From assembly GCA_036261915.1 (NCBI GenBank), contig DATAJX010000006.1:23546-87545 (forward strand): a stretch of DNA of 64,000 bases. Direction: 5' to 3'. The translations under genes were made by a program, and so were the position numbers. Positions 22,924 through 39,254 of the stretch are shown one piece after another. How positions within the stretch are numbered: the stretch's first letter is position 1; every line of letters begins with the position of its first letter. Source of the DNA: Alphaproteobacteria bacterium (GTDB lineage: Bacteria > Pseudomonadota > Alphaproteobacteria > UBA2136 > UBA6156). The notes below the pieces were generated by a model, which saw only the letters and a list, made by a program, of their open reading frames with translations, ran no database searches and had not been told where the DNA came from.

Positions 22924-22943
22924 TTACAAAAAAGCCCTCTACT

Positions 22944-23737: not shown

Positions 23738-23911
23738 GGCCTTCTTAGGCCTTAATAAACCAGCGCGCAGCGGTGCGCCACGCAGTGGCGGTATTCGCGG
23801 AACGCGAATTTCATAAGCGTTGAAAATCGCGAAGCGACGCCCCGCTGGCGGGGCAGCGAGGGGACCGAGCGCGGGATGTTTAGCGCGTCACAGACGCCCT
23901 TATAGAAAACT

Positions 23912-24343
23912 CTAAATCACCTTCAATCGTTTCGCCCACGCAATCACGTCGGCCACCACCGCATTCATTTCAGCGAAGATGAATTCGCGCTCCACCGCTT
24001 CCTCCGGCGTCACCCACTCGTAGCCTTCGTGCGCTTCGTGCTCGGGCAGCACAATGTCGGGCACGCCTTCCACACGGGCCAGGTACGCCACCGAATATTT
24101 GGTCGGCTCCATCGCGCCCCAGCGGCTGGTGCTGCAGGGCACGATCAGCTCCACATCGGTCAGGCCGGTTTCTTCTTCAATTTCGCGTAACAGCCCCTGC
24201 CCCGGCTGGTCGCCAATGTCCATGCGGCCGCCCGGCAGGTGGCTTTTGCCGCTGTACTCGCCGCCATGCACCAGTAACAAAATACGGCCTTCGCCGTTGA
24301 ATATCACCGCATGCTCGCTGACTTGCCCGATGTAAAACGCCAT
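23912..24343 (-). CDS. NUDIX hydrolase
   Basis: Nudix box GGRMDIGDQPGQGLLREIEEETGL. Confidence 0.85.
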   Translation of the reverse strand: MAFYIGQVSEHAVIFNGEGRILLLVHGGEYSGKSHLPGGRMDIGDQPGQGLLREIEEETGLTDVELIVPCSTSRWGAMEPTKYSVAYLARVEGVPDIVLPEHEAHEGYEWVTPEEAVEREFIFAEMNAVVADVIAWAKRLKVI

Positions 24344-24346
24344 GGG

Positions 24347-25090
24347 CTATTGCGTGTTCGGCATGTCCATCATGCGCTGCAATTCGTTCATGTCGGCGCC
24401 GGTGGGCGCTACAGGCTCGGGTGGCGGCGCACCGGGGCCCACTTCCAGCTGCGGCACGTTGGGCACCGGCACCGGTACGGTGGCGGGCGCGGGCGGCAAC
24501 TCGTTGCTGTTTTCATTGATGCCCGGCACCACAAAATCATTATTCACGCCTTGCGGCGCCTCGTCGTCGCCCCCCCTGTCGTGCTCGGGGCCGCTGGGCT
24601 GCGGCGGCGCTACGCGCGCAGGCGCCGCATCGGTGTAGCCCGCCGGACGCACGCATTTTTCAAGCTCAACGTCAAAACGGGGGTGGTCATAGGTGGCCAC
24701 GCTGGGAAAGGTATTGAACATCCAGCCATGGAATTCCGGCTCGCCGCTGGCAGCGGTAATATCAAGCCAAGCGGCATCCTGCACCGGCACGCCGCCCACG
24801 CCCCAGCCGCACTTTTGCAGGCTAACGCTCAGGCCGCCCCACTTCTGGGTCTTGCCGCTTTCAACGGTCATGGTTTCAACCTTGTTGGTCTGCTTGTCCA
24901 GCAAACGCACCACGGCGCTTTTGGCAAACTGCACGGTGCCGGCCGGAACCACCGCCGTGCCACTGGCCACAGCCGCGGTCTTGCTCACCTGCCCGCCCAC
25001 CACCGGCAGCGCCGAAAGGTCGATCGTATACCCTGTGCTGGCGCAAAAAACCCCGGCCAAGCCAGCCAGGGTCAATGCCGGGTTCTTCAT
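24347..25090 (-). CDS. Secreted DUF2155-like protein with a Pro-rich C-terminal extension
   Basis: Signal peptide. VRLLDKQTNKVETMTV...LQKCGW resembles the alphaproteobacterial DUF2155 family. Confidence 0.5.
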   Translation of the reverse strand: MKNPALTLAGLAGVFCASTGYTIDLSALPVVGGQVSKTAAVASGTAVVPAGTVQFAKSAVVRLLDKQTNKVETMTVESGKTQKWGGLSVSLQKCGWGVGGVPVQDAAWLDITAASGEPEFHGWMFNTFPSVATYDHPRFDVELEKCVRPAGYTDAAPARVAPPQPSGPEHDRGGDDEAPQGVNNDFVVPGINENSNELPPAPATVPVPVPNVPQLEVGPGAPPPEPVAPTGADMNELQRMMDMPNTQ

Positions 25091-25094
25091 AAAA

Positions 25095-25562
25095 TTACTC
25101 CGCGCTCGCGCTGTCGGCCAGCAGGTTGCGGATGCCGGTCAGCTCGTCCATCACCTGGCGCGGGGTCAGGTGGCGTTGTACGGCTTCCTTCAGCTCCGCC
25201 TTGCGGGTTTTTTGCAGGTACTGCTGTACGCCACGAATGGTATAGCCCTGGTTGTGCAGCAAGTCGCGCACCAGTTTCAGCAACGCAATGTCTTCGGGGC
25301 GGTACATGCGGCGGCCACCCTGCAGCTTCAGCGGCTTCAGGGTGGGAAACTTGCTCTCCCAAAAACGCAGCACGTGGGTGGGCAGTTGCATGTCTTCGGC
25401 CACTTCGGCAATGCCGCGGTAGGCTTCGCTGCTTTTGACAAAGCTGCGGCTGCTGCGCACGCGGGCCTTGTCATTCGCCTTTTCGGCTTCTTCGCGGGCC
25501 TTGCGCTGGGCCAGCATCGCCTTGGCGGCCGATGCGCCAAACAGGTCGGGTAAAATCGCCAT
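25095..25562 (-). CDS. MerR family transcriptional regulator
   Basis: MerR-type HTH ([20 protein letters not shown]...[18 protein letters not shown]). The position downstream of ihfA is conserved. Confidence 0.8.
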
Positions 25563-25574
25563 GGTTGCGGCTTT

Positions 25575-25883
25575 CTATCGCTTGGCGTTCAGGCGGTCTT
25601 TTAAAATGTTGCTGGCGCGGAAAACCAGCACCTTGCGGGGCGTAATGGGCACAGCCACGCCGGTCTTGGGGTTGCGGCCCATGCGCTGCTTTTTGCTGCG
25701 CACCGAAAAATGACCGAAGGTGGCCAGCTTCACGGTTTCGCCCTTGGCCAGGGCGGCACAAAGCTGCTCGACAACGTCATCCACCAGGTCGGCGGCTTCG
25801 CGGCGGGTCAAACCCACCTCGTGGTAAACGGCCTCGGCCAGGTCCATACGGGTTACGGTTTTGCCAGCAGTGTTAGCAGCCAT
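25575..25883 (-). CDS. ihfA: Integration host factor subunit alpha
   Basis: TRMDLAEAVYHEVGLTRREAADLVD...GRNPKTGVAVPI. Confidence 0.95.
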   Translation of the reverse strand: MAANTAGKTVTRMDLAEAVYHEVGLTRREAADLVDDVVEQLCAALAKGETVKLATFGHFSVRSKKQRMGRNPKTGVAVPITPRKVLVFRASNILKDRLNAKR

Positions 25884-26090
25884 GATAGAAACATCCCCCT
25901 CGATCTCATTAACAAAAAATACCTACGGCGCAGGGGCTTTTTTGCAGGCCCGGCTTGCGCTTATGCGGGGCACCCTAAGCGCGCATTTTCCACGCGTCAA
26001 GCACCACAATACAGCTTTATCAATATTTTATCGCTTGTTGTTCGGGCGCCGAAAGGCACAAAAATACTTGAATAAACCGCAGGTTGTTTT

Positions 26091-27035
26091 TTACCAGCGG
26101 ATGAGCGCACTACCCCACACGAACCCGGCACCGAAGGCCTGCAGGAGAAGAACGTTACCACGATTGAACTTACGGCCCTGAACCGCCGCATGCATGGCCA
26201 GCGGAATGCTGGCACCGCTGGTGTTGGCATGCACGCCCACGGTGGCCACCACCTTTTCAAACGGCAGGCCCAGCGCCTTGGCGGCGGCTTCCAGAATGCG
26301 GATGTTCGCCTGGTGCGGCACCACCCAGTCGATGTTTTCAAGCGCCAAACCCTGCCCGGCCACAATGGCGGGCAGGGTACCCATCTCGCGCACCGCGTGC
26401 TTGAACACCTCACGGCCGTTCATGTGCACCTTGCCGTCAACCGTCGCCAACATCTCGCCCTTGCTGCCGTCGGCGCCCACATCAACCGCCAGCAGGCCGC
26501 GCTTTTCGCCCTCGGCTTTTTCTTTCTTGATCACGATCGCCCCTGCCCCATCCCCAAACAGAATGCAGGTGCTGCGGTCGGTCCAATCCAGCGTGGTGCT
26601 CATGGCCTCGGCGCCGATGACCAGCGCATGGGTGTGCAGGGTGGTTTCCAGCAAACTTTTGGCCACCGCCAAGGCACTGATAAACCCACCGCAAGCCGCG
26701 TTCACATCCAGCACCACGGCATGGGCGGGCAGGCCCAACGCGCCCTGCACCTGTGCCGCCACGCTGGGGAAGTTCCGGTCCGGCGTGCAAGTGGCCACCA
26801 GCACAATACCCACATCTTCCGGCTTTACATCGGCCAGGGCCTCGCGCGCGGCGGCAATCGCCAGCGTACTGGTCGTCTCGCCTTCGCTACATATATAGCG
26901 CTGGGTGATGCCGGTGCGCTCCACGATCCATTCGTTGGTCGAATCCAGCCCGTGCAACGCGATCAGTTCGTCGTTGCTCAGGCGGGTACGGGGCAGCGCG
27001 CTGCCGGTGCCAACAATGGGGTATTGGTAGGTCAT
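26091..27035 (-). CDS. fabH: 3-oxoacyl-ACP synthase III
   Basis: Active-site NAACGGF plus the His/Asn regions. 314 aa. Confidence 0.95.
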   Translation of the reverse strand: MTYQYPIVGTGSALPRTRLSNDELIALHGLDSTNEWIVERTGITQRYICSEGETTSTLAIAAAREALADVKPEDVGIVLVATCTPDRNFPSVAAQVQGALGLPAHAVVLDVNAACGGFISALAVAKSLLETTLHTHALVIGAEAMSTTLDWTDRSTCILFGDGAGAIVIKKEKAEGEKRGLLAVDVGADGSKGEMLATVDGKVHMNGREVFKHAVREMGTLPAIVAGQGLALENIDWVVPHQANIRILEAAAKALGLPFEKVVATVGVHANTSGASIPLAMHAAVQGRKFNRGNVLLLQAFGAGFVWGSALIRW

Positions 27036-27051
27036 AACCCTGTACCTACCA

Positions 27052-27084
27052 CAAAAAAAAGCCCGCCAACAGGCAGGCTTTTAA
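27052..27084 (-). terminator. Rho-independent terminator of rpmF
   Basis: Minus strand: gcctgcctgttggcgggc followed by tttttttt. Confidence 0.7.
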
Positions 27085-27097
27085 AAGGATACCAAAG

Positions 27098-27322
27098 TTA
27101 CTCGGCCGGGGTTTCGGCAGCCGGAGCAGCCTTCACCTTGGCAGCCTTCACCAGGCGGTCGCCGTAGTACATGCTGCCATCGGCCTCGCGGCTCAGGTGG
27201 TGGCGGCGGGTCAGGGTGCCGGTTTGCTGGTTTTCGGTGTAGGTGCCCACTTCAGCGCGCGCATGGCGTTGCTGACGCATACCTTTGCGCCCGGGGCTGG
27301 TTTTCTTCTTCGGAACGGCCAT
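27098..27322 (-). CDS. rpmF: 50S ribosomal protein L32
   Basis: MAVPKKKTSPGRKGMRQQRH... Confidence 0.9.
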   Translation of the reverse strand: MAVPKKKTSPGRKGMRQQRHARAEVGTYTENQQTGTLTRRHHLSREADGSMYYGDRLVKAAKVKAAPAAETPAE

Positions 27323-27444
27323 AACTCGTAACTTTCCTTTAAATCCTTAAAATCTGCCGGGCTTTTAGCCTAAACCGCCCCCCCGCGCAAGCCCTTTTGC
27401 AGGGGGGCCTTCCCCACCCCCTCGGCCCACGCTATTGTCGGCCC

Positions 27445-27870
27445 ATGAAAAACAATATCGCCCTCCTCACCGCCCCCCTGCTTTTGACCGCCTGCGCCGC
27501 CATGGTCGACACCCACGGCAGCATCATTCAGCAAGGCCAGATTGAAAAAATCACCGAAGGCGTCACCACGCAAGACCAGGTGCGCGAGCTGCTGGGTAGC
27601 CCGGCCACCACCGGCACCCTCAACGAAAACCGCTGGATCTACATCACCAGCACCGTGCGCGACAAACCCCTCGATCCCGGCATTCTCACCCACCGGCAGG
27701 TCGTGGTCATCGATTTCACCCCCTCGGGCACGGTAGCCGCCGTGACGCAAAAAAACGAGAGCGACAGCCGCACGGTCGAACCGCTGCCCAAGGTCACGCC
27801 CACCCACGGCCAGGGCCTGGGGGTCATCGACCAGATGCTCAAGAACATCGGCGTCGACAAGGATAAATAA
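27445..27870 (+). CDS. bamE: Outer membrane protein assembly factor BamE (SmpA/OmlA lipoprotein)
   Basis: Lipobox LLTAC, and the GMTRDQVRELLGSP-like motif (VTTQDQVRELLGSPA). Confidence 0.8.
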   Translation: MKNNIALLTAPLLLTACAAMVDTHGSIIQQGQIEKITEGVTTQDQVRELLGSPATTGTLNENRWIYITSTVRDKPLDPGILTHRQVVVIDFTPSGTVAAVTQKNESDSRTVEPLPKVTPTHGQGLGVIDQMLKNIGVDKDK

Positions 27871-27877
27871 GGCCTAA

Positions 27878-28468
27878 ATGACCCAGCGCGGCGCCCTGTT
27901 CGGCCTCGATGCCCGCATCGCGCTGGCCATTTTCGCCGTTCTGGCGGTGGTGGTGGGCTATCTGGCCTTCGGGCGCATCCAGGTGGCCCGGCAGGCCGCC
28001 CTGCTGGCCCAACTGCAGGATATCGAAAACGCCCTCGCCGCCTATCAAACCGACATGGGCACCTTCTTCCTGTTCACGCTGAATAAAGAGCCGGGCGACA
28101 ACGACAGCACGCTCGATATTACCGCCCTGTGGGATAAAAACATGGTCAAACCAGGCTTCCGGCGGCACTGGAACGGCCCCTACCTGCACCGCACCAGCCG
28201 CGAAATGCCCGGCTACGGCCGTTTAAGCGTGTTTTACGCCACCGGCGACCGCAAAGACTACTGCTCCACCACGTCCGACTGCTTTGTGTGGCTGTCGGTA
28301 TCCAGCACGCCGCAAAAGGCCTGGGTGCAAACCAACCATATCGTCGACGAAGGCAACGGCGCTGAAAACGAGATCGACGGCCAGCAGATCAGCCTCGGGC
28401 GCATCCAGTCCGAAGCCGCCACCGACCCCCGCCCGCTGTATTACCGCACGGTCGAACGCCCCCGCTAA
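27878..28468 (+). CDS. Pseudopilin-like protein A (GspG/EpsG-like body, atypical N-terminus)
   Basis: Conserved N-terminus QRGALFGLDARIALAIFAVLAVVVG, then AL..Y..D.G.F and W.GPYLH motifs reminiscent of T2SS major pseudopilins. Paralog of 34152..34745. Begins 7 bp after bamE. Confidence 0.55.
   Translation: MTQRGALFGLDARIALAIFAVLAVVVGYLAFGRIQVARQAALLAQLQDIENALAAYQTDMGTFFLFTLNKEPGDNDSTLDITALWDKNMVKPGFRRHWNGPYLHRTSREMPGYGRLSVFYATGDRKDYCSTTSDCFVWLSVSSTPQKAWVQTNHIVDEGNGAENEIDGQQISLGRIQSEAATDPRPLYYRTVERPR
27896..27944 (+). repeat. Direct repeat copy 1 (encodes LFGLDARIALAIFAV)
   Basis: ctgttcggcctcgatgcccgcatcgcgctggccattttcgccgtt, about 85-90% identical at the nucleotide level to 34185-34233. 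Confidence 0.7.
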
Positions 28469-28478
28469 GCCGCCATTT

Positions 28479-28506
28479 AAAAAGCCCCCGGCCGGGGGCT
28501 TTTTTA
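28479..28506. terminator. Bidirectional rho-independent terminator
   Basis: aaaagcccccggccgggggcttttttact, lying between two convergent genes. Confidence 0.75.
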
Positions 28507-31500
28507 CTGCGCGGCACGGCTGTACTTGGCGGGCTGGGCCGCAAAGGCGGCATATACATACGTGGCGCCACTGCCGTTATAGTCGCTGTTGGTGTTGCGT
28601 ATCTTGAACCCGTTTGAAACCACATCCAGGTCGGTGGCCGCATTACTGTTACTGGCCGATGTCAGGTTATAAAACACCTCGTTGCCGTCCGGGTTATACA
28701 GGTTGCGCGCGGTATCCAGCACAAACCAGTTGCCGGTGCTGTCGGTGCGCTTGATGATCACAAGCGCGGGTTTGAAACCCAGGTTCACATAAGCGCCGTC
28801 GGCACTACCGTTCCCGGTATAGGTTCCAAATTTGCTGAATCCCGGCACCTCGGCAAAGGCATAAACAACATAAGGCTGGCTGGCCAACACGCCGCCCCCG
28901 GCGGTCAGGCCCACATTGCTCGAGGTATGGCCCGAACCCCACATGGTCGAATACGTGGTCGCCGCCGCGGTGGTGTTCAGCGCCAGGTAGGCCGTGGTGT
29001 TGTTCGCCAGGTTCTGGTGCCACACATACCAGTGCGAAGCCGAACCGCTATACGTCCGGGCGATCACAAACGCCGGTACAACCCCCATGCCGTGCGCCGC
29101 GGTAAAAGCCCCCGATCCTGGCGCCGTACCGGTCAATATGTCCATGCCGGGCGTAACGCCCTTCTTAAACATGTGCGCCACATAAATGTTGCCGCTGGTG
29201 TTAAAGGCGCTGGCGCTGCCTACCGCAAAACCGTTGTTGTAAAAGGTTGCCAGCGATTGCGCATCGATGGTCTGCACCGCCGTGCCCGTGCTGTCCAGGT
29301 ACTTGGCGGGCCCGCGCGCACTGTCAAACCAGCCCCATGCGCCGGTGCTGGTATTATCCTTCAGCATCACCAGGTCGGGCTGGTAAGGGGTGTAGGTGGT
29401 CAGCGGCGTGTAGGTGATAACAATAAGCCCAGGGGCGCCCACACCCGCCGTGCTGCTGTTCGAACTACCGCCGCCGCCGCCGCCGTACAGGCCACCATTA
29501 CCCGCCGAATAACCGCTGCTGCCGCCCTGTTGCGAGCCGCCGCCGCCGCCCGAACCGTGCAGCGGGTCAAACTCCTGCCCGTTGCCACCGTTACCGCCCC
29601 TGCTGGCGCCGGCAGGATTGCCGCCGCCGCCGCCGCCGCCGCCCGATGACCCGAACAGCGAATAACCGTACCCGCCATGGGTATTGTTCACCGCCACGAT
29701 CCCACCGGTGCCGTTGACCAGCCCGCTGGCATTGGCCCCGCGCCCGCCAACGCCGCTGGTGGTGTTATTAGAGGGTCCCAATTGACCGGCTTCACCGCCG
29801 CCGCCGCCGCCGCCGCCCGGGCCGCGGTAGTTCACACCCGCGTTCGAGCCACCGGCCCCGCCATTGCCATAAGGTCCGGCCGCACCGCCGCCGCCGCCGC
29901 CCGCCTGGGTGCCGGTGGCGGGGCTCTGCCCGTTGCCACCGGCGCCGCCCGAATACTTGGTGGTACCGGTACCCGAGCCCGAAGCCCCGCCAGCCCCACC
30001 CGTGCCACCGCTGCCGCCGCTGCCGCCCTTGGCCCCCACGCTCGAAGCCGCCACGCTGGTGCCGTTGAACCACGTATCGCCGCCGGCGGTGCTGGCCGCA
30101 CCACCGCTCCCCACCTGGGTCTGCACGGTGGTGGTGGGCACCAGCGCCAGGTTCGATATCTTCGAGTACCCGCCGCCGCCGCCGCCGCCGTTGACCGAAG
30201 ACCCCGACGACGCCCCACCGCCGCCACCGATCACTTCAATGGTGTTGCTGGTGCTGTTCCAATCCAGCGGCACGCGCCACGAAGTCCCCCCGGTCAAAAA
30301 TATCTGCTTGGTCGTCGGCACGGTGGGCACATAGGTGATCACCACGATCCCCGGCGCCCCATTCCCCGGGTTTCCCTGGTTGGTGCTGGTATAACCGGCA
30401 CCGCCGCCGCCGCCGCCATACAGGCCGCCGTCACCACCACGGTAAATACTGCTTTCGCCGCCGCCGCCGCCGCCGCCCGCACCTGCACCACCCCACTCAA
30501 TGCCGTCGCCCCCCTTGCTCCCCAAACCGTGGGCACTGCTCACGCCGCCGCCGCCGCCTGCGCCAAAGGCCCCGGCGGTCGAATCCACACTGGCCGTCGC
30601 CGCACCGCCGCCGCCGCCGCCAAAGCGGTTAGCACCACCGGCACCGCCGGTGGTGCTCGTACCGTTACCTCCAACCGAACCGCCATTAGCTCCACCGCCA
30701 CCACCCGAACCTGCACTACCGGCCGAACTCATATCGCCACCATTGGCGCCATTACCGTTGGGCCCGGCGGCGCCACCGCCACCGGGGCCGCTCACATAGC
30801 CCGAGCCACCACCCGAATTCCCGCCGCTATACGCATAAGGCGCACCGGGGTTGGTGGTGCCGCCACCCGCACCGCCGCGCGCGCTCGAAGCCGCCCCGCC
30901 GGTCCCGCCGCTGCCGCTGGTGCCGCCGGTGCCGCCCTTGGCACCCACGCTCGCCACCGCCAGCGAAGCCCCGTTGAACCACGTATCGCCACCGGCACTC
31001 CCCGCCCCGCTGGTGGCCGGGGTGGCGGCCACACCGCCCATGCCCACATTGTAGCTGATGCTTGCCCCAATGGTCAGCGTCACACTGGTGGCCTTGGCAT
31101 AGCCGCCGCCGCCGCCGCTCCCGGCATAGGTGGTGCCGCCACCGGCCCCAAAACCGCCGCCGCCGCCAGCCCCGATCACTTCAATGGTGTTATCGCCGCT
31201 CCAGTCACTGGGCACGGTCCAGGTGGTGCCGCTGGTCAAAAACACCGTCTTGGTGGGCAACGGCCCAGGCAAGGTAACAACCTGGGTACCGCCCGTGCCG
31301 CGGTACAGCACCGGCTGGAAGTAAAGCGAAGGGCTCACCACCGCAGGTGTCGCCGTGTTGTAGGTGTTCAGCGCCGCAAACCCCGCCGGGGGGGTGGCAG
31401 CAAAAGCTCTCTGACCAAAGTTGAACGAGGCCGTTTGGGTGGAACCTTGGTTATTGCCTATGGCCGCCACCCAAGCCAGCCCCGCCGTAGCAGTGGCCGC

Positions 31501-32928
31501 CGGGCTGGTGCCGGTGGCAGGGTTCGAACTCCCCAGCCACGTCCCGTTCTTCGAGAAATAAAGCTTACCCGTGTCGGCGTCAAAGGCCACGCCAACCACA
31601 TCGTTAATGGCAATCGTCACACCATAGCTGGTAATGGCCGAACCGTTATTATACACTTGCCCCGCACTGTTTATCCCATAGCCATAAGTATTATTGTAGC
31701 CGGGGTAATAGCTCGCGGGCATGTTCTGCTGCTGGATACCCGCCGTCCCCACCAAACTGCCGGTCCATACAAACTCCCAGTACCATTTGCCACTCGTCAT
31801 CAACTGGTTGGCCTTCACAACGCTGTTGGTGGCAAACGGCACCGAAACGTCCATATTCGCCGCCGACAAGGTCGAGCCGGTCGGGTCCAGAAAATTGAAT
31901 GCAGGGTCATTCCCGCGCCCATTGTCGCCGTTGTCGGCCAACGTGGGGTGGTCTTCGGTAGGGTCATAGGTCACGCCGGTGGTCACGCTAAAGTTATTGG
32001 GCGTCCAGTTGTTGCCCTTACCGCTCACGTCCTTGCCCAGCGTGGTGGCGGTGTTGTTCAGGTAATTTTCAAAATCAAGATGGAATCCGTTGGTGCCATA
32101 AGCGCCGGTATAGGTTTTCGGCACCCACATGCCGTTGCTGTCAATCTCGGCAAAAGCGCTGGGGTCCAGGGCCAGGCCGTCCACAAAATTGATGTCGGCC
32201 ATCACGCCGTCAAAATACTGGGTGGAAGAACCCGCCGTGTTCAGGTAAGCGCCGATCCCGTTATAGCCGGACCGGTTGAAGTACGAAGTGGTGCTGTTCG
32301 CCACCGAGCCCGAACCGATCACCTGGCGCTGGCCGTTAACGTATATCCGCACGTTATCGGCGGTGGTGCCGTTGGCGGTGTCCCATACAAACACAATGTG
32401 GTACCAGGCCGTGGGGTCGCGGTACACGCCCGCGCTGGTGGCGGCATTGGCTGAGTTGGCATAAAAGATCAGCTGGTCGCTCGTATTGAAATCAACCTCG
32501 GTCGTCTGCCCCGACCCCACGATCTGGCTGAACAGGGTCTGCGTGGTTCCCATCTTCCCGCGCTTGACCCACATGCTCATGGTCCAGGTGGTCAGGTTCC
32601 CGTTGCCGGCGGGTGAGCGGCTCAGGTACGCCGAACTCGCGCTCCTGAACCGCAACGCCCCGCCGCTGCACTTGCCGTTGGTAACACCCGGAATGGTACT
32701 CGAAAGGAACGAACCCGCCGAGTTCTTCCACTCATAGCTATACTTCGTGGGCACCATCAGGCTCTTGCCGCTGGCATGGTTATTGGCGATCAGGCGGCAA
32801 CTGCCGAACTCATTGATGCCAAGCCCCTCGCCGTTCGGAATGGTGTAACTCACGTTGGTCTGCGCCATGGCATTGCCGCCCAGCAGCAACCCCAGCAGCA
32901 TCAGCAAAAACAACATCGCCCGGCGCAT
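28504..32928 (-). CDS. Giant secreted multidomain fibre-like protein (LamG-like + SPRY-like + 2x glycine-rich domain + duplicated C-terminal domain)
   Basis: 1474 aa with a signal peptide (AMA|QTN).
- aa ~100-240: LamG/ConA-like pattern (W.H..FVWD...VRIYVNG).
- aa ~380-500: SPRY-like pattern (KWYWEFVW...GDVVGVAFDADTGKLYFSKNG).
- aa 562-866 and 876-1173: two copies of a W.VP...IEVIG-GGGGG...APG(I/L)(V/I)VITY glycine-rich domain.
- C-terminal domain carrying a twice-repeated KP.LV.IK...STG.W..D.AR motif. Confidence 0.8.
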   Translation of the reverse strand: MRRAMLFLLMLLGLLLGGNAMAQTNVSYTIPNGEGLGINEFGSCRLIANNHASGKSLMVPTKYSYEWKNSAGSFLSSTIPGVTNGKCSGGALRFRSASSAYLSRSPAGNGNLTTWTMSMWVKRGKMGTTQTLFSQIVGSGQTTEVDFNTSDQLIFYANSANAATSAGVYRDPTAWYHIVFVWDTANGTTADNVRIYVNGQRQVIGSGSVANSTTSYFNRSGYNGIGAYLNTAGSSTQYFDGVMADINFVDGLALDPSAFAEIDSNGMWVPKTYTGAYGTNGFHLDFENYLNNTATTLGKDVSGKGNNWTPNNFSVTTGVTYDPTEDHPTLADNGDNGRGNDPAFNFLDPTGSTLSAANMDVSVPFATNSVVKANQLMTSGKWYWEFVWTGSLVGTAGIQQQNMPASYYPGYNNTYGYGINSAGQVYNNGSAITSYGVTIAINDVVGVAFDADTGKLYFSKNGTWLGSSNPATGTSPAATATAGLAWVAAIGNNQGSTQTASFNFGQRAFAATPPAGFAALNTYNTATPAVVSPSLYFQPVLYRGTGGTQVVTLPGPLPTKTVFLTSGTTWTVPSDWSGDNTIEVIGAGGGGGFGAGGGTTYAGSGGGGGYAKATSVTLTIGASISYNVGMGGVAATPATSGAGSAGGDTWFNGASLAVASVGAKGGTGGTSGSGGTGGAASSARGGAGGGTTNPGAPYAYSGGNSGGGSGYVSGPGGGGAAGPNGNGANGGDMSSAGSAGSGGGGGANGGSVGGNGTSTTGGAGGANRFGGGGGGAATASVDSTAGAFGAGGGGGVSSAHGLGSKGGDGIEWGGAGAGGGGGGGESSIYRGGDGGLYGGGGGGAGYTSTNQGNPGNGAPGIVVITYVPTVPTTKQIFLTGGTSWRVPLDWNSTSNTIEVIGGGGGASSGSSVNGGGGGGGYSKISNLALVPTTTVQTQVGSGGAASTAGGDTWFNGTSVAASSVGAKGGSGGSGGTGGAGGASGSGTGTTKYSGGAGGNGQSPATGTQAGGGGGGAAGPYGNGGAGGSNAGVNYRGPGGGGGGGGEAGQLGPSNNTTSGVGGRGANASGLVNGTGGIVAVNNTHGGYGYSLFGSSGGGGGGGGNPAGASRGGNGGNGQEFDPLHGSGGGGGSQQGGSSGYSAGNGGLYGGGGGGSSNSSTAGVGAPGLIVITYTPLTTYTPYQPDLVMLKDNTSTGAWGWFDSARGPAKYLDSTGTAVQTIDAQSLATFYNNGFAVGSASAFNTSGNIYVAHMFKKGVTPGMDILTGTAPGSGAFTAAHGMGVVPAFVIARTYSGSASHWYVWHQNLANNTTAYLALNTTAAATTYSTMWGSGHTSSNVGLTAGGGVLASQPYVVYAFAEVPGFSKFGTYTGNGSADGAYVNLGFKPALVIIKRTDSTGNWFVLDTARNLYNPDGNEVFYNLTSASNSNAATDLDVVSNGFKIRNTNSDYNGSGATYVYAAFAAQPAKYSRAAQ

Positions 32929-32932
32929 GGGC

Positions 32933-33952
32933 TCAGCGCCCTGCTTGCTTGGCCCGCAGTTCGTCCACTTCGCGGCGCAGGTCGTCGATTTGTTTTTGTT
33001 GGATCTTCACAGCCTCGATCAACGGCGCGATCAGCTGGTCGCTGTCCACCACCATGGTGGTGCTGCCGCCGCCGTGCACAGCCTCGGGCATCACCTTCTG
33101 TACATCCTGTGCGATCACCCCGTACGAGGGTCGGCCGTCCTTCTTCCAGGTAAAGTGCACGCCGTTCAGGCTTTTCACCAATCCCATGGCGTCGGCCACC
33201 GGCACAATATTGTCTTTCAATCGGCGGTCCGAACTGTGCAAATAGGCAACCGCCGTCATATTGCCGCTGGCGCTCACGTCACCGGCCACCTCAAGCTTGC
33301 TGGCCGGCGAGGTTACACCCAAACCCACATTCCCGGCGCTCGTAATCCCCAGGCGCGCACCCTGCCACGCACCGGCAATATAATTGCCCACCATATACAT
33401 CCCGCTGCTGTCATAACCGGTGGCCCACAACGGCGTGGTGTTGCTGGTAAAACGTATGTAGTTCCAGCTACCGGTGCCCGACCGCGACAATGTCATGGTA
33501 TTATCAAGGCCCGACAGCACATAAAGCGGCACCGTCGTGGTGGCGGCAGCCCCAATCCCCACATTACCGCTCGAATAAAACCCGGTGGCCGAAACCACAC
33601 CAGTGGCACTCACCCCCGGTCCCACAAAGCCCAACGTAGGGTGAATGTAAGCAGCCCCCGCCGTACCCGCCAATGTAAAGCTCACAGTGCCCCTGTCGGC
33701 CACCACCATGCCCAGGTTGGCGCCGCTGGAAACGTTGGTGGTGCTGATGCGGTCACCCGCGCCCCCACCGTTGGTGAACACAATGCCGTTCACCGCCAGG
33801 TTGGTGGTCGATACGTACAAAAAGTGCCCATACGTCCCGCTCACCACCCCGGCCACGCTGGTACTTACCAGCGGCGCATTGTTCATCTGCGCCATCACGC
33901 CGCCCGGCAGCAGTAGGGCGCAAACAAGCAAAAGCAGGCGTAATGTTTTCAT
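32933..33952 (-). CDS. Secreted phage-tail-fibre-like protein with a C-terminal S74 intramolecular chaperone autoprocessing domain
   Basis: Signal peptide (VMA|QMNN). Tail-fibre repeats (GNVGIG...TT, GNVGLGVTSPASKLEVAGDV). The C-terminus YLHSSDRRLKDNIVPV...GLVKSLNGVHFTWK...LIAPLIEAVKIQQKQIDDLRREVDELR matches the Ser-Lys dyad chaperone-of-endosialidase domain. Lies 4 nt downstream-adjacent to the giant gene. Confidence 0.8.
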   Translation of the reverse strand: MKTLRLLLLVCALLLPGGVMAQMNNAPLVSTSVAGVVSGTYGHFLYVSTTNLAVNGIVFTNGGGAGDRISTTNVSSGANLGMVVADRGTVSFTLAGTAGAAYIHPTLGFVGPGVSATGVVSATGFYSSGNVGIGAAATTTVPLYVLSGLDNTMTLSRSGTGSWNYIRFTSNTTPLWATGYDSSGMYMVGNYIAGAWQGARLGITSAGNVGLGVTSPASKLEVAGDVSASGNMTAVAYLHSSDRRLKDNIVPVADAMGLVKSLNGVHFTWKKDGRPSYGVIAQDVQKVMPEAVHGGGSTTMVVDSDQLIAPLIEAVKIQQKQIDDLRREVDELRAKQAGR

Positions 33953-34151
33953 CTTCTTGAACCCACATTAACGGCTCATCTTTTCCGCGCAACGCCCGAG
34001 TAAGCAAAACGCCGACATTTCCGCCCAAAAAATGAGCCAAACCTCATTAAAAAAACAACACTTTACAACAGTAAAACAACAGCCACGCATCACCTCCGCA
34101 TCATTTGCGCACGCCCCTTGCGCCCCCGCCCCTGCCTGCTAGCATGTTGGC

Positions 34152-34745
34152 ATGAAGCATATTTTACAGTCACAACAAGGCGCCATGTTCGGGCTCGACG
34201 CCCGTATCGCGCTGGCGATTTTCGCCGTGATTTCCGTGGTGGCGGGCACCGCCATCGCCATCAGCATGGATAGCACCCGCGCCAAGGCCCTGGCGCAGGA
34301 AATGTCCGACACCGGCAAGGCCATCGAATCCATCAGCTACGACATGCGCGCCGATCTTTACCCGTCCCTCATCCAACCCTCGCCCAAAAACGCCTACACG
34401 GCGCTGTTCGACGTCAGCGTCATCAAAGACGAAAACAACTTGCGCGGCAAATGGTTAGGCCCCTACGTTCATGCAACAAGTACAAGCTCCCGCTACGGCG
34501 AAATGATGATCGAGGCCCGCAAGGCCTCCCATGCCGACGCCTGCATGGAAGGCGAGCCCTGCTTCCTCTGGCTCACCTACGCCAACGTCAAACGGGCGAT
34601 TGCGCTCGAGGTCAACAGCATCATCGACGGCGACAAAGAAACCGACCCGGCCAAAACCGGCCGCATCCAGTGGGTCGAGAACGCCGACGGCACAACGCTC
34701 AGCCTGCAGGCCGCCAAAACGCTCACTTATACCGGGAACAACTAG
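34152..34745 (+). CDS. Pseudopilin-like protein B (paralog of 27878..28468)
   Basis: QQGAMFGLDARIALAIFAVISVVAG N-terminus. Contains AIESISYDMRADLYP and KWLGPYVHATS, and shares the C.FLWL motif with A. Its stop codon overlaps the nusB stop. Confidence 0.55.
   Translation: MKHILQSQQGAMFGLDARIALAIFAVISVVAGTAIAISMDSTRAKALAQEMSDTGKAIESISYDMRADLYPSLIQPSPKNAYTALFDVSVIKDENNLRGKWLGPYVHATSTSSRYGEMMIEARKASHADACMEGEPCFLWLTYANVKRAIALEVNSIIDGDKETDPAKTGRIQWVENADGTTLSLQAAKTLTYTGNN
34185..34233 (+). repeat. Direct repeat copy 2 (encodes MFGLDARIALAIFAV)
   Basis: atgttcgggctcgacgcccgtatcgcgctggcgattttcgccgtg. Confidence 0.7.
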
Positions 34746-35236
34746 GCTTTCACAAAAAATTCGCCCCGCACCGCGCGGGCGATCTTATCCAGCGTGGCGT
34801 TCACAAACGCCACTTCTTCGGGGCTGGCCACAAAGCCTTTGGCAATGTTCACAAACTCGTTGATGACCACGGGCGGCGTCACATCGGCACGGGCAAACAG
34901 CTCGGCGGTGGCAGCCCACAGCAGGGCGTAGTGCACCGCATCCAGCCTGTCCATCGGCCATTCTTCCAGCAGGTTGGCACCAATCAGGGCGGCGTGGCGC
35001 TCGGCGCCGCGGGCGGCTTCGGCGGTAATGGCGTCAAACATCTTCTTGTCGGCCTTGCGACGCTTCAGGCGCGCACCGGCAAATTCGGCGGCCACATCGG
35101 CCACGTCCTGCCCACGCGCCTTGGCCTGGAACAACGCCTGCACCGCGCAAATGCGCGCCTCGGTGCGGCTGTCCTTCACCAACGGAGAATTTTCGAGGGG
35201 GAACGCGTCTTCCCCGGCTTCCCAGGCCTTAACCAT
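34742..35236 (-). CDS. nusB: Transcription antitermination factor NusB
   Basis: ARICAVQALFQ...helical NusB fold motifs. 164 aa. Confidence 0.9.
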   Translation of the reverse strand: MVKAWEAGEDAFPLENSPLVKDSRTEARICAVQALFQAKARGQDVADVAAEFAGARLKRRKADKKMFDAITAEAARGAERHAALIGANLLEEWPMDRLDAVHYALLWAATAELFARADVTPPVVINEFVNIAKGFVASPEEVAFVNATLDKIARAVRGEFFVKA

Positions 35237-35244
35237 TTAAACTG

Positions 35245-35697
35245 TTACTTTCCGCCGTCTTTTTTAAGAACGGCTGCAAAATCTTCGGGCTGTTGAAAGT
35301 CATGATAGACCGACGCATAGCGCACATACGCCACCGAATCCAGCGCTTTTAACGCTTCCAGCACGGTTTCGCCCAGCTCGCGGCTGCTAATTTCGCTCTT
35401 GCCGCTCTCGCTCAGTTGCTGCTCGATGTCGCTGATGGTCTTTTCCAGCTGGCCCTGCTCCACCGGGCGCTTGCGCACGGCCACGCTCACGCTGCGGGTC
35501 AGTTTTTCGCGGTCGAACAGCTCGCGCACACCACTGCGCTTCACCACAATGATCTGTTGCACCTGAAAACGCTCAAAGGTGGTAAAGCGGCGGCCGCACT
35601 CGGGGCATTCGCGGCGGCGGCGGATGGTGCGCCCATCGTCAGCCGGGCGGCTGTCCTTCACAATCGTGTCGTCGTGGCTGCAAAAGGGGCACTTCAT
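35245..35697 (-). CDS. nrdR: Transcriptional repressor NrdR
   Basis: MKCPFCSHDDTIVKDSRP...CPECGRRFTTFE zinc ribbon plus an ATP-cone. Confidence 0.95.
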   Translation of the reverse strand: MKCPFCSHDDTIVKDSRPADDGRTIRRRRECPECGRRFTTFERFQVQQIIVVKRSGVRELFDREKLTRSVSVAVRKRPVEQGQLEKTISDIEQQLSESGKSEISSRELGETVLEALKALDSVAYVRYASVYHDFQQPEDFAAVLKKDGGK

Positions 35698-35761
35698 GCC
35701 GCTAGAATGCCTACATCTGGTTAAAAAAGTCCAGCCCTACCCCAAATATGGGGCCAAACCT

Positions 35762-37033
35762 TTATTTCAGGGCCGGGTAAAGCGGATGCTTCTTGCACAA
35801 CTTCAGCACCTCGCCACGCACCCGCTTCTGCGTTGCGGCCAGTTGCTTGTCGCCCTGCTTCACCGCACGCAATACGTCGGCGATCCACACCGCGATCTGC
35901 TTGAAGTCCTTGTCGTTGAAGCCACGGGTGGTGCCCGCCGCGCTACCCAAACGCAGGCCGCTGGTCACAAACGGCTTTTCCGGATCGTTGGGGATCATGT
36001 TCTTGTTGGTGGTCAACCCGGCCTTGTCCAGCTCCACCTCGGCCACCGCGCCGGTCACGCCAAAGCTGCGCAGGTCCACCAAGCACAGGTGGTTGTCGGT
36101 GCCGCCGCTCACCAGCCGCAGGCCCTCCTTGGCCAGCTGGTCGGCCATGGCCTTGCAGTTCTTCTTCACGGCCTTGATGTAGGTTTTAAACCCGGGCTTC
36201 AGCGCCTCGCCAAAGGCCACGGCCTTGGCGGCCACAATGTGTTCCAGCGGGCCACCCTGCAACCCGGGGAAGATTGCGCTGTTGATCTTCTTCGCCTTCT
36301 CGGGGTCGTTTGTCAAAATCATGCCACCACGGGGCCCGCGCAGGGTTTTGTGGGTGGTGGTGGTCACCACGTCGGCGTGGGGGAATGGGTTGGGGTGCTC
36401 GCCCGCCGCCACCAGCCCGGCAATGTGGGCCATATCCACCAAAAACAGTGCTCCCACGTTGTGGGCAATGCGGGCGATGCGCTCAAAGTCGATTTCGCGC
36501 GGGTAGGCACTGGCACCGGCACTGATCAGCTTCGGCCGCACCTGGTTGGCGGTATATTCCAGCGCGTCGTAGTCGATCAGCTCACTGCTGTCCAAGCCGT
36601 AAAAGTGGGGCTTAAACCACTTGCCGCTCATGTTCACCGGGCTGCCGTGGGTCAGGTGCCCGCCCTGGTCCAGCCGCAGGCCCAAAATGGCGTCGCCGGG
36701 CTGAAGAAAGGCCATGAACACCGCCTGGTTGGTCTGGCTGCCGCTGTGGGGCTGCACGTTGGCAAATTCGCAGCCGAACAGCTTTTTGGCGCGGTCGATG
36801 GCCAGTTGCTCCACCACGTCCACCTCGTGGCAGCCGCCATAGTAGCGCTTGCCTGGGTAGCCTTCGGCATACTTGTTGGTCAGCACGCTGCCCTGCGCCT
36901 CCAGCACGGCGGCACTCACGTAGTTCTCGCTGGCGATAAGCTCGATCCCCTCGCGCTGACGCTTCAGTTCTGCCCCAATGCCCTTGGCAACGGCGCTATC
37001 GGTTTTGGCTAAAATGCTGGCCATGATGATCAC
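35762..37033 (-). CDS. glyA: Serine hydroxymethyltransferase
   Basis: IELIASENY and [13 protein letters not shown] (PLP-binding lysine) motifs. Confidence 0.95.
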
Positions 37034-37097
37034 TCCCTATTGCATGCAATATAACAAAAAACCGCCTGCGGCGGCCGGTCGTGCACGCAAAACAAGC

Positions 37098-37661
37098 TTA
37101 AACCAGCGTATCGATCGCCTTGGGGGCTTCGGGCGCCGGCACCGCCGTAACGGTGGAAGTGCGCGAGGTCACCGGCCGAACCACCGCCGTACCCGCCTGC
37201 TCAATGGCCGGGCCCACCACCTTGGCGGCGGTGGCGCTGGCCAGGGCAATGCTCAGGCTGGTGCCCCGGCTTTGCTGGGCAATGGCATTCAGGTTCTGCT
37301 GCACTTGCGCGGCCACGGCGGCCTCGGTCTGGGTGCTTTGGCCCGAAAGGTTAAGCCCATAAGCGCGCAACGCGGTCATCAAGGGCCAGCGGGGGAAGCC
37401 GTTGGTGTCACTGTTCCTGAAATACATGCCTAGGCCTTTCACCTGGCTGAAAAGGTTTTCGCGCACGCTGGCGGTCTGCACACCGGCATCCACCTGCGCC
37501 ACGGCAGCGCTCAGGGTGGTGATTTCTTCAACACTCAAGCCGCCCGATTGGGAAATTTCGCTCAACACTTGCATGGCATCGCTGGCAGGGGCAACTTGTA
37601 ACGCAGCGGCCGGGCTATACAAGCCCGCCTGAACCGCACTCAAGTTCGTTACGTCTACCAT
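37098..37661 (-). CDS. Hypothetical protein (Ala/Ser/Thr/Gln-rich)
   Basis: 187 aa, no recognised domain. An AT-rich promoter region lies upstream. Confidence 0.4.
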   Translation of the reverse strand: MVDVTNLSAVQAGLYSPAAALQVAPASDAMQVLSEISQSGGLSVEEITTLSAAVAQVDAGVQTASVRENLFSQVKGLGMYFRNSDTNGFPRWPLMTALRAYGLNLSGQSTQTEAAVAAQVQQNLNAIAQQSRGTSLSIALASATAAKVVGPAIEQAGTAVVRPVTSRTSTVTAVPAPEAPKAIDTLV

Positions 37662-37882
37662 TCCAGTCTTCCTGACTGTTCTCTCTCTCCGGGTGCTGTT
37701 TAGTTTCCAGCCTTAAGCACCCTGGCCATCCTGGCTCATATTCATCATAGGCTTACCACCTAGGGGTGCAACATAAATTGCACGCAACAGGTATACTAGG
37801 CGCTTTATTCGTAGGCACCTGTATGGCCTAACTGCAACAAGTTTGTATAACAAACTGAATATTAAGAATAAATATACAAAAT

Positions 37883-39199
37883 CTAACGTTTTTCGATCGC
37901 CAGATTCATGCCCGAAAGCCGCGCGGCCACGTCACCATAGCCACGCTCGATGCGGTCAATATGCGTCAACGTGGTACTGCCATTCCCCACCGCCGCGGCA
38001 ATAATATAGGCCAGCCCGGCGCGCAAATCCGGCACTTCCACCGGGGCGTCCAACCCTTTCAGCGGGGTGGCTCCCATGATCAACGCGCTGTGGCCATGGC
38101 CCTTGTGCTCAAAGCGGCAGGGCTTGCCGATGCACTCGGTGCTCACCTGGATTTTCGCCCCCATGCGGTTCAGTACACCGGTGTAGCCAAAGCGGCTCTC
38201 ATACACGGTCTCGTGGATCACGCTCACCCCCTGCGCCTGCGTCAGCAGCACGGCAAAGGGCTGCTGCCAGTCGGTGGCAAAGCCGGGGTACACGTCGGTC
38301 TCCAGCATAATGGGCTTCAGCTCGCCCTCCCGGTAAAAGCGCAGGCTCTGCTCGCCCACTAAATCGAAACCGCCGCCCACCTGCCGGTAATAGGCCAAAA
38401 AGTTGTTCAGGGTGTCGGGCTGGATGCCGTGCACGGTAATGTCGCCACCGGTGGCGCAGGCCAGGCTGGCCCAACTGGCGGCCTCAATGCGGTCGCCCAA
38501 ACAGTGCATGGTGGTGCCATGCAGGTGGGTTACCCCCTGCACGCGTATCTCGCGGCCGGGGGTTACGAATATAATGGCACCCATCGCCCGCAGCATGGCG
38601 ATCAACGCCAAAATCTCGGGCTCGATGGCCGCATTGCGTATAATGGTCGTCCCCGCCGCCAGCACGCTGTACAGCAGGCAGCTTTCGGTGGCGCCCACGC
38701 TGGGGTAGCTCAGGCTGTAATGAATGGCCTTCAACCCACCGGCCTCGGCAAAAAACCCGCCTTCCTCATGCTCAACCCTGGCCCCGAACAAACGCCCGGC
38801 CTCAATATGGAAATCCACCTTGCGCGCGCCAATGGCGTCGCCATCCAGCACCGGCACGCGGGCCTTGCCAAAGCGGTGGAGCAGCACGGGAATGAACAGA
38901 ATGGGAATGCGGTTGCTGCCCGAATCCGGCATCTTCATGTGCCAGTCCTTGATGCTGGTGGGGTCAACCTCCAGCGTGCCGGCTTTTTTGTCCCATGCCA
39001 CCTTGGCACCCAGCCCCTGCACCATCTCCACCAGTATCTGCACTTCACCAATGGGCGGCACGTTGGTCAGCGTCGTCGGGCTGTCGCCCAAACACGCCGC
39101 CACCAACGCCTTGTTGATGAAGTTCTTGGCGCCATAGCAGGTAATCTCGCCCCTTACGGGGCGGCCGCCGGTTACGGTATAGGTGCTTGTCATGGCCAC
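37883..39199 (-). CDS. murA: UDP-N-acetylglucosamine 1-carboxyvinyltransferase
   Basis: GAKNFINKALVAACL..., ...HGIQPDTLNNF... 438 aa. Confidence 0.95.
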   Translation of the reverse strand: MAMTSTYTVTGGRPVRGEITCYGAKNFINKALVAACLGDSPTTLTNVPPIGEVQILVEMVQGLGAKVAWDKKAGTLEVDPTSIKDWHMKMPDSGSNRIPILFIPVLLHRFGKARVPVLDGDAIGARKVDFHIEAGRLFGARVEHEEGGFFAEAGGLKAIHYSLSYPSVGATESCLLYSVLAAGTTIIRNAAIEPEILALIAMLRAMGAIIFVTPGREIRVQGVTHLHGTTMHCLGDRIEAASWASLACATGGDITVHGIQPDTLNNFLAYYRQVGGGFDLVGEQSLRFYREGELKPIMLETDVYPGFATDWQQPFAVLLTQAQGVSVIHETVYESRFGYTGVLNRMGAKIQVSTECIGKPCRFEHKGHGHSALIMGATPLKGLDAPVEVPDLRAGLAYIIAAAVGNGSTTLTHIDRIERGYGDVAARLSGMNLAIEKR

Positions 39200-39254
39200 C
39201 CTTATACCCTCCTGCCCGCCAAATGATAAAGGCCCCGCAGGGCCTTTATTTCAA

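Follow-up and report, generated by a model that had tools for sequence, protein, structure and literature searches.

The two similar direct repeats that flank a pair of fibre-like genes in the DNA analysed here (a window of 64,000 nt) very probably represent the conserved 5' coding ends, a pilin-type leader and helix, of two old tandem paralogues, which were kept alike by purifying selection and between which the fibre genes were inserted later. The original prediction had suggested that the same repeats could be a built-in ON/OFF or deletion cassette. This interpretation is not supported by the comparison with related genomes, where both repeats occur without the insert, nor does it fit the short runs of perfect identity (at most 11 nt) and the lack of a recombinase among the scanned open reading frames.

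The repeats lie in two genes on the forward strand, designated A (27878–28468, 196 aa) and B (34152–34745, 197 aa, or 186 aa according to a second gene caller, which starts the gene at an internal Met). The two proteins are paralogous, with 33% amino-acid identity (E = 1e-26), and share a non-canonical leader motif (MTQRG-A-LFGLDARIALAIF... in A and ...QQG-A-MFGLDARIALAIF... in B). A repeat search of the window located the direct pair at 27890–27958 and 34179–34247 of the forward strand, 69 nt long and 84% identical, with a start-to-start spacing of 6289 nt. In a codon-based alignment of A and B the identity of this block is 84.1% (58 of 69 nt identical and 11 mismatches, the longest exact run being 11 nt), compared to 45.8% outside it. 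The first copy comprises codons 5–27 of A, which encode G-A-L-FGLDARIALAIFAVLAVVVG, that is, the end of the leader and the hydrophobic alpha1-N helix, and the second copy comprises the homologous codons of B (G-A-M-FGLDARIALAIFAVISVVAG); both start at codon phase 0. A degenerate 41-nt pattern derived from the repeat occurs twice in the window against an expectation of 0 from 100 shuffles, and a six-frame motif search of the window detected no copies beyond these two. The geometry had been described correctly: the copies are in direct orientation about 6.29 kb apart, they flank two minus-strand fibre-like genes, their identity is far above that of the remainder of A and B, and a crossover between them would formally leave an in-frame chimera. 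The identity of about 85–90% over about 48 bp given for them corresponds to the upper end of the measured values, which are 83.3% at 27896–27943 and 89.6% in the best 48-nt sub-window, 27890–27937.

Further evidence comes from the same locus in related genomes. In the window, A is preceded by a BamE gene (27397–27870, forward strand; identified with the Pfam BamE model on an identical Logan contig), and B is followed by a NusB gene (34742–35236, reverse strand) and then by NrdR, GlyA and MurA, as in the relatives. Every related locus likewise has BamE immediately before A. About 20 related genomes carry both N-terminal segments, with A and B as immediate neighbours and no fibre genes. BamE, A and B are adjacent in L003, L005–L014, L016–L021, L087, L088, L090 and the P0003 contig. 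The closest relative, L005 (A 73%, B 72% and IHF 98% identical), has the order BamE-A-B-NusB-NrdR-GlyA-MurA and no fibre genes, and none of 82 related loci contains a fibre homologue. The ancestral order would have been BamE-A-B-NusB with a gap of 6–150 nt between A and B, and in the lineage of this metagenome-assembled genome (MAG) a two-gene surface-fibre module would have been inserted into the A-B spacer on the opposite strand. We infer insertion as the direction of the event, rather than some 20 independent losses. The repeats would then flank the fibre genes because the module entered between two paralogues.

The similarity of the two segments can be explained by selection. A and B appear to be ancient tandem paralogues from a family of proteins of about 190 aa with a predicted type IV pilin or pseudopilin fold, and the 69-nt repeat encodes the almost invariant N-terminus of this family. 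It begins with a short basic leader that closes with K/R-G-A; after this come [ML]-F-G-L-D-A-R-I-A-L-A-I-F-G/A and the remainder of the hydrophobic alpha1-N helix. If this N-terminus serves as anchor, signal and core helix, it would be under much stronger selection than the globular head. The DNA has a GC content of 62% and a GC3 near 0.8, and with such a bias at third positions the same amino acid often has the same codon in both genes, which by itself leads to a DNA identity of about 80–90% in this segment as opposed to 46% elsewhere. Over the 48-nt segment, A and B of the same genome are 58–88% identical in 17 genomes (83% in the window), and the identity between A and B of different genomes reaches 92% (window versus L005). 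At the amino-acid level the N-termini of A and B are no more similar within genomes than between genomes (mean identity 0.667 and 0.665, P = 0.44). A point against this explanation is that the clade of the window and L005 has higher values, 0.81 and 0.90, than the family mean of 0.67. In genomes without the insert the DNA identity of the two N-terminal segments is equal or greater, and we attribute it to purifying selection and GC3 codon bias.

The prediction had also offered a fallback, in which gene conversion keeps a functionally constrained signal identical. The constraint is well supported, whereas intragenomic conversion, or concerted evolution, between A and B at their 5' ends, with the repeat as the conversion tract, is unlikely. 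Some of the data do point towards it: using the codon usage of the window as the expectation, the same codon is found at 14 of the 19 identical residues in the repeat compared to 9.5 expected (one-sided P about 0.03), with no such excess in the rest of the genes (22 of 39 versus 21.3 expected); N-terminal DNA identity is higher within genomes (0.72) than between them (0.666, permutation P = 5e-5); and some lineage-specific residues are common to both copies, such as ALGIF in L008 and ALSIF in L019. However, a DNA-level excess is expected from genome-specific GC content and codon usage, as the genomes range from 47 to 63% GC, and it vanishes in the amino-acid comparison described above, while the shared lineage-specific residues could also result from co-evolution in helix packing. 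Five synonymous differences are found inside the repeat, within the 19-codon block of identical residues. The A or B of the window is up to 92% identical over 48 nt to the other paralogue in L005, which exceeds the 83% between A and B in the window itself, and in L009, L011, L013 and L017 the N-termini of A and B are clearly divergent, at 52% amino-acid identity, and show no trace of homogenisation. A literature search on tandem pilin paralogues and gene conversion found nothing relevant. Given the excess of identical codons, past gene conversion or codon constraints near the translation start may nevertheless have played a minor part.

We consider it very improbable that the repeats constitute a device for deleting the 6.3-kb module, by RecA-dependent recombination or by slippage, with an A::B chimera as the product and the fibres switched ON or OFF. 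The direct orientation, the equal codon phase, the position on both sides of the fibre genes and the formally in-frame product are all compatible with such a device, and deletion-type phase variation of pili is known from pilE of Neisseria gonorrhoeae. Yet both copies predate the module, being present in every insert-free relative, and hence did not evolve for the cassette; repeats that belonged to such an element would be expected to be missing from empty sites, or to remain there as one copy. Deletion would eliminate the body of A, a part of the gene that every one of the approximately 20 relatives has conserved. The suggested comparison with relatives for a fused single gene revealed no A::B fusion in 22 related loci or contigs, all relatives retaining both A and B, and the pair of Logan contigs from the source run, two independent assemblies with the intact arrangement, contains no chimera either. 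Nor can the insert-free relatives be regarded as the deletion product, as they possess two full-length genes. With 84% identity and a longest perfect match of 11 nt, the repeats are a poor substrate for homologous recombination; efficient RecA-dependent exchange in E. coli needs roughly 20–30 bp of uninterrupted identity, and RecA-independent slippage drops steeply at a spacing of 6 kb. An excision cassette would also be expected to have either long identical repeats or a dedicated recombinase, and no recombinase gene is found nearby: the scanned ORFs of the window contain no recombinase, integrase or transposase domains, and the window has no tRNA gene. An artefact, in which a chimeric contig or a binning error placed foreign fibre genes between A and B, is scarcely credible. 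In its favour, the sequence derives from a MAG, the composition of the insert is atypical, and the glycine-rich repeats in the larger fibre gene break short-read assemblies, with Logan contigs ending at 30428 and 30400. Against this, both junctions (A with the larger fibre gene, and the smaller fibre gene with B) lie well inside two Logan contigs that were independently assembled from run SRR12773038 and match the window without a mismatch; these contigs share 29 nt within one ORF, which is unbroken across the contig break, and the GC3 of the inserted genes is near that of their neighbours. On the basis of these two independent contigs we rejected misassembly.

Insertion between conserved paralogues thus remains the preferred reading, and the inserted DNA consists of two genes on the reverse strand, both encoding proteins with N-terminal signal peptides. 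The gene next to B (32933–33952) encodes a secreted fibre-like protein of 339 aa with a C-terminal Peptidase_S74 intramolecular-chaperone domain (Pfam PF13884, residues 241–293, 62.2 bits against a cut-off of 22, E = 5.6e-17), as is characteristic of S74 tail-fibre-like proteins, and it is 25–31% identical to phage tail-fibre proteins. The gene next to A (28504–32928) encodes a secreted protein of 1474 aa with a signal peptide, a SPRY domain (E = 2.4e-7), two glycine-rich modules and a C-terminal DUF7483 domain (Pfam, E = 1e-69). This protein has more than 1200 homologues, many annotated with a Laminin_G_3 domain, an annotation found in the homologues only and not in the 1474-aa protein itself. 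Its C-terminus is 35–39% identical to proteins of pelagiphages, cyanophages and methylophages, and the homologue in cyanophage SS120-1 is annotated as a virion structural protein. A relative (L084; GCA_016125035.1) has a homologous pair, an S74 gene followed by a DUF7483 gene, at a locus unrelated to this one, where the pair is chromosomal and free-standing. The module can be described as an S74-chaperone fibre protein combined with a LamG/SPRY/Gly-rich/DUF7483 protein, and it may have come with a bidirectional terminator on the side of A and, on the side of B, with a divergent control region of 199 nt. Between A and the convergent 1474-aa gene lies a palindrome (AAAAAGCCCCCGGCCGGGGGCTTTTTT, 28479–28505) in the form of a GC hairpin with A5 on one side and T6 on the other; with an RNA fold of -29.7 kcal/mol (z = -4.2) it is likely a bidirectional intrinsic terminator, although a simple consensus terminator scan did not list it. 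The divergent spacer between the S74 gene and B (33953–34151, 199 nt) is relatively AT-rich, the 34000–34499 bin having a GC content of 0.56, and presumably holds the promoters of both genes, although a consensus promoter scan reported nothing in it.

The inserted DNA differs from its surroundings in tetranucleotide composition (distance 0.279 versus a null of 0.167 ± 0.022), while its genes have a GC3 of 0.74–0.76, close to that of the neighbouring genes. The search for target-site duplications and terminal inverted repeats at the insertion borders returned only the 9-mer CGCCCCCGC, which we judged to be a chance occurrence. The junctions in the window do not resemble the spacer between A and B in L005, a comparison that does not allow exact insertion breakpoints to be placed. 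Among the scanned ORFs there are no other phage genes around the inserted pair, and the surroundings are a housekeeping region.

The description of A and B as pseudopilin-like is supported at the level of the predicted fold. Both are predicted to form a helix of about 54 residues, hydrophobic in its N-terminal half, followed by a beta-sheet head, which corresponds to the long N-terminal alpha1 helix on an antiparallel beta-sheet head that defines the pilin fold. Both also have the short basic leader ending in Gly and the approximately 20 hydrophobic residues of a class III signal peptide. By analogy with type IV filament subunits, the N-terminus would combine a membrane anchor, a filament-core helix and a probable prepilin-peptidase site. 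The leader has the consensus x-[KQ]-[KR]-G-A-[ML]-FGLDARIALAIFGALSVISG among 142 distinct ORFs from 78 loci, in which the leader Gly and the following Ala are each present in 141 of 142, the residues F, G, D and R in all 142, and a basic residue (K or R) before the Gly in 120; in the first alignment FGLDAR was invariant in 8 of 8 A/B proteins. The canonical G|[FM]xxxE motif (Pfam N_methyl PF07963 or TIGR02532) has no match in A or B at E ≤ 1. The acidic residue is an Asp located 6 residues past the Gly, and only cleavage after the invariant Ala would place it at position 5, a register that is also that of a weak PulG alignment (E = 1.9). Gene A scores below the cut-offs of the GspG models (17.1 bits versus 21 for PF08334 and 18.4 versus 88.85 for TIGR01710), B has no match to either, and no PDB sequence was matched significantly in a profile search, where GspG reached E = 1.9. 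No prepilin peptidase, assembly ATPase or platform protein was found among the 34 window ORFs scanned against Pfam, a scan covering 64 kb of the genome, and no pilin machinery genes were found among the called neighbours on Logan contigs. Members of the family are located among housekeeping genes. A metagenome scan with protein A yielded two loci, with A and B in tandem in both. The FGLDAR family comprises about 830 cluster representatives, and deep-branching MarineProteo1 and UBA12223 MAGs contain dozens of copies per genome.

A and B share with type IV pilins and type II secretion system (T2SS) pseudopilins (PilA/PilE, the type IVb pilins TcpA/CofA, and GspG/PulG) the predicted fold and, like type IV filament subunits in general, have a basic leader ending in Gly, about 22 hydrophobic residues, and a helix that includes an acidic residue and a Gly. 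As in pilins, conservation is much stronger in the N-terminus than in the head, and the paralogues have a near-identical 5' coding stretch, a situation well known for pilin gene families. Unlike canonical pilins, they have G-A-[ML]-F-G-L-D-A-R in place of G-[FM]-T-L-[IL]-E, with Asp for Glu, an invariant Arg two residues further on and an additional Ala, also invariant, behind the Gly, and they adjoin bamE amid housekeeping genes without a T2SS or type IV pilus operon.

Pilin genes are rearranged in several known systems, including pilE/pilS gene conversion and pilE deletions in Neisseria and the Piv-mediated tfpQ/tfpI inversion in Moraxella. In these systems the homology is the conserved 5' part of the pilin coding sequence, the outcome is a chimeric in-frame pilin or lost expression, and the process relies on extended tracts of identity, on silent cassettes, on a G4 or dedicated sites, or on site-specific recombination by Piv. 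The locus studied here differs in having 69 nt at 84% identity with runs of at most 11 nt and no recombinase among the scanned ORFs; A and B are complete, ancient and orthologously conserved paralogues, and no rearranged variant was seen. Another parallel is the pilA–tRNA-Thr region of Pseudomonas aeruginosa, where accessory genes (tfpO/tfpW-Z) are inserted next to the pilin gene. Both cases involve lineage-specific cargo beside or between pilin or pilin-like genes at an otherwise syntenic locus, but here the cargo is a secreted module resembling phage tail fibres, on the opposite strand and without a tRNA or integrase gene. The module matches phage tail fibres and tailspikes with S74 domains and DUF7483/SPRY phage proteins in its domains, at 25–39% identity; unlike phage fibres, its proteins carry signal peptides and stand alone in a housekeeping region.

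It is tempting to speculate that A, B and the FGLDAR family form an undescribed branch of type IV filaments, with K/R-G-A|[ML]FGLD5-A-R7 as the processing signal (Asp replacing Glu5, and an invariant Arg), with genes that belong to the core of this alphaproteobacterial lineage and are linked to bamE, and with a functionally meaningful insertion of the fibre genes between them. We regard this combination of claims as unlikely. If it were true, the insertion would not be accidental and could, for example, allow B to be co-regulated divergently with the fibre genes.

The repeat pair is an ordinary result of gene insertion between paralogues with selection-conserved 5' ends. The general lesson is that conserved pilin-type N-termini give rise to short direct repeats of high identity, which should not be mistaken for excision sites. 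A side result of perhaps modest value is the recognition of a compact family with a confidently predicted pilin fold outside the current Pfam and NCBIfam models, with the unusual invariant leader GA[ML]FGLDAR and, in one lineage, synteny with bamE as its hallmarks. This family could add to the range of type IV filament subunits and prepilin-peptidase substrates known so far.

The direct repeat that flanks the two fibre genes occupies positions 27890–27958 and 34179–34247 of the window, where a repeat search aligns 69 nt with 84% identity and a distance of 6289 nt between the copies. Each copy sits, in the same codon phase, at the 5′ end of a plus-strand gene: A (27878–28468, 196 aa) or B (34152–34745, 197 aa). 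A and B are paralogous, 33% identical to each other (E = 1e-26). In a codon-based alignment of the two genes, identity is 84.1% in the repeat block (58 of 69 nt, longest exact run 11 nt) and 89.6% in its best 48-nt window, compared to 45.8% outside the repeat. The window (GC content 62%) contains two matches to a degenerate 41-mer built on the repeat, versus 0 expected by chance, and no third copy of the encoded peptide motif was found in the window. The original prediction described the repeats and the locus accurately.

The repeat block translates to G-A-[LM]-F-G-L-D-A-R-I-A-L-A-I-F-A-V followed by further hydrophobic residues. A scan with [LM]FGLDAR[IL]A, limited to one genome per species, retrieved 133 relatives in 78 loci, and a profile of this FGLDAR family matched 830 cluster representatives, all of ~180–240 aa, among 1.84 billion proteins. 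Across 142 distinct ORFs of ~190 aa the motif residues G, A, F, G, D and R show little or no variation, and a short leader ending in K/Q-K/R precedes the motif. Among sequence models compared with A and B, matches to T2SSG and TIGR01710 fall under the cut-offs and N_methyl gives no match; gene B has no sequence-model match whatever. The AlphaFold2 model of A, built with 38 homologues as input, is confident (pLDDT 90.8) and consists of an N-terminal helix of 54 residues set against a beta-sheet head, so that the label "pseudopilin-like" is right at the level of the fold. Type IV pilins and pseudopilins are the closest known kinds. What the repeat encodes is the leader and alpha1-N helix, which in any pilin is the most strongly conserved stretch; by analogy with type IV filaments this segment would anchor the protein in the membrane, carry the peptidase site and form a helix of the filament core. 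A weak alignment with PulG sets a register in which [LM] is residue +1, Asp takes the place of Glu5 and the conserved Gly falls on position 14, which suggests cleavage after the invariant Ala. Gene callers place some B-type starts at the internal Met of MFGLDAR, losing the leader (34185 instead of 34152 in gene B; also 10679 in the related locus L003); the invariant G-A and upstream basic residues in 141 of 142 ORFs favour the longer form as the genuine protein. The family is hugely expanded in two MAGs, UBA12223 (DMEM01... contigs) and MarineProteo1_Bin2 (PTJW01... contigs; together loci L023–L081), with dozens of ~190-aa paralogues, often in tandem arrays, whose first 30 residues are almost identical (KKGAMFGLDARIALAIFGALSVISGAALYSAIQ) and whose heads are divergent.

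Wherever a related genome offers enough flanking sequence, L015 excepted, A and B have adjacent orthologues that follow bamE directly in tandem, 6–150 nt apart (L001/L002/L009, L003, L004/L007, L005, L006, L008, L010–L014, L016–L021, L087, L088, L090 and the P0003 contig). The closest relative, L005 (A 73%, B 72%, NusB 86% and IHF 98% identical), has the gene order DUF2155-MerR-IHF-FabH-L32-BamE-A-B-NusB-NrdR-GlyA-MurA, the window's order exactly, except that the two fibre genes are missing. Searching ~1 Mb of related loci turned up no homologue of either of them. The locus varies in some relatives: L019 (10019–11735) and L020 (9531–11248) have a tandem run of three family members downstream of bamE, in L015 A and B (769–1341 and 5615–6193) are separated and inverted through rearrangement, and the A-B spacer of L005 (10583–10665) contains an imperfect inverted repeat of AGGTGTTAGG / CCTAACACCT units with no counterpart in the window. 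A 187-aa ORF between glyA and murA (37098–37661, minus strand) has no Pfam match, and a similar-sized gene occupies the same position in L004 and L090. Elsewhere in the window, adjacent minus-strand genes (7851–8702 and 8718–9461) encode multi-EF-hand calcium-binding proteins, which are unusual for bacteria; an EF-hand gene also lies near the A-B locus in L003.

The fibre genes are both on the minus strand. The S74 gene (32933–33952, 339 aa) has a C-terminal Peptidase_S74 chaperone domain, and the DUF7483 gene (28504–32928, 1474 aa) combines SPRY, glycine-rich modules and DUF7483; S74-chaperone tail-fibre-like proteins are their closest known kind. GCA_016125035.1 contains a homologous module at an unrelated locus where FGLDAR genes are absent, with the S74 gene directly followed by a LamG/SPRY/DUF7483 gene and signal peptides on both products. 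The pair forms a conserved two-gene module, with the same order, a 3–4 nt gap and signal peptides on both products, at different chromosomal sites in the two related genomes (7271–9997 and 10001–13969 in the GCA_016125035.1 locus). Elsewhere, the module's domains are typical of proteins from pelagiphages and cyanophages (in cyanophage SS120-1, an annotated virion structural protein). The 1474-aa protein contains two homologous ~300-aa modules (…TSGTTWTVPSDW…IEVIGAGGGGG…) separated by 909 nt, and its gene has an internal 104-nt repeat (80% identical, near 29984–30087 and 30893–30996) and GGC/GCC-rich glycine tracts.

Given the tandem, insert-free A-B arrangement in relatives and the homologous module at an unrelated locus, the most parsimonious reading is that the fibre pair entered by insertion between A and B in the window's lineage. 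The insert is compositionally atypical, with a tetranucleotide distance of 0.279 compared to 0.167 ± 0.022 for randomly drawn pieces of the window, to which the unusual amino-acid composition of the fibre proteins may contribute. At its A end, a strong perfect palindromic GC hairpin with A5/T6 flanks (28479–28505; −29.7 kcal/mol, z = −4.2) overlaps the stop codon of the 1474-aa gene and is likely a bidirectional terminator common to this gene and the convergent gene A. At the B end, 199 nt separate the divergent S74 gene and gene B. Searches for a target duplication, inverted repeats, an integrase or a tRNA accompanying the insert found none. An assembly artefact was rejected: two independently assembled Logan contigs (SRR12773038) match 21807–30428 and 30400–43952 with zero mismatches and cover both junctions. 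These short-read assemblies break in the region of the internal repeats of the 1474-aa gene, at 30428 and 30400.

The original prediction read the repeats as a switch that excises the fibre genes and leaves an A::B chimera. Recombination between the two copies would indeed preserve the reading frame. However, the body of gene A, which all relatives have kept, would be lost, and in none of the related genomes compared does one fused gene take the place of A and B between bamE and nusB. Efficient RecA-dependent exchange in model bacteria demands far more homology than 58 of 69 nt in runs of at most 11 nt, and copies 6.3 kb apart are poorly placed for deletion by slippage. The scanned ORFs of the window include no recombinase; they are otherwise housekeeping genes (DsbD, YhdP, RF, PBP1, AmiC, RNase E, FabH, NusB, NrdR, GlyA and MurA, as well as HflX, NtrXY, TopA, Tsf and RpsB). 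The idea resembles the pilin-gene rearrangements of Neisseria pilE/pilS and Moraxella Piv, which are marked by long identical tracts, silent cassettes or a recombinase and by rearranged products; tests for these hallmarks found none at the locus, and no rearranged product was seen among the related loci or in the two Logan contigs. We consider an excision switch very improbable.

The similarity of the two copies can be explained differently. Within the repeat, A and B use the same codon at 14 of 19 identical non-Met/Trp residues, compared to 9.5 ± 2.2 expected from the window's codon usage (P about 0.03), with five synonymous differences; outside it, codons agree at 22 of 39 identical residues versus 21.3 expected. 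Over the homologous 48 nt, within-genome A-versus-B identity ranges from 58% to 88% across 17 genomes (83% in the window), while between-genome identity peaks at 92% (window and L005). In a permutation test on 18 genomes, amino-acid identity within and between genomes was 0.667 and 0.665 for the N-terminal block (P = 0.44) and 0.272 and 0.270 for the gene bodies (P = 0.33), whereas DNA identity of the N-terminal block was 0.72 and 0.666 (P = 5e-5). This excess is what genome-specific GC content (47–63%) and codon usage would produce. Because relatives have comparable A/B identity and no amino-acid excess exists within genomes, the high 5′ identity is not specific to this genome and is older than the presumed insertion. 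Gene conversion may have made a small contribution in the window's clade, although nothing requires it; as judged from the sequence comparisons, purifying selection on the invariant peptide together with GC3 bias accounts for the identity. The FGLDAR family, which is bamE-linked in the window's lineage, has no annotation in Pfam or NCBIfam. The repeat itself is ordinary, and the sole unusual element is this family, which joins a pilin fold to an invariant leader of non-canonical type.
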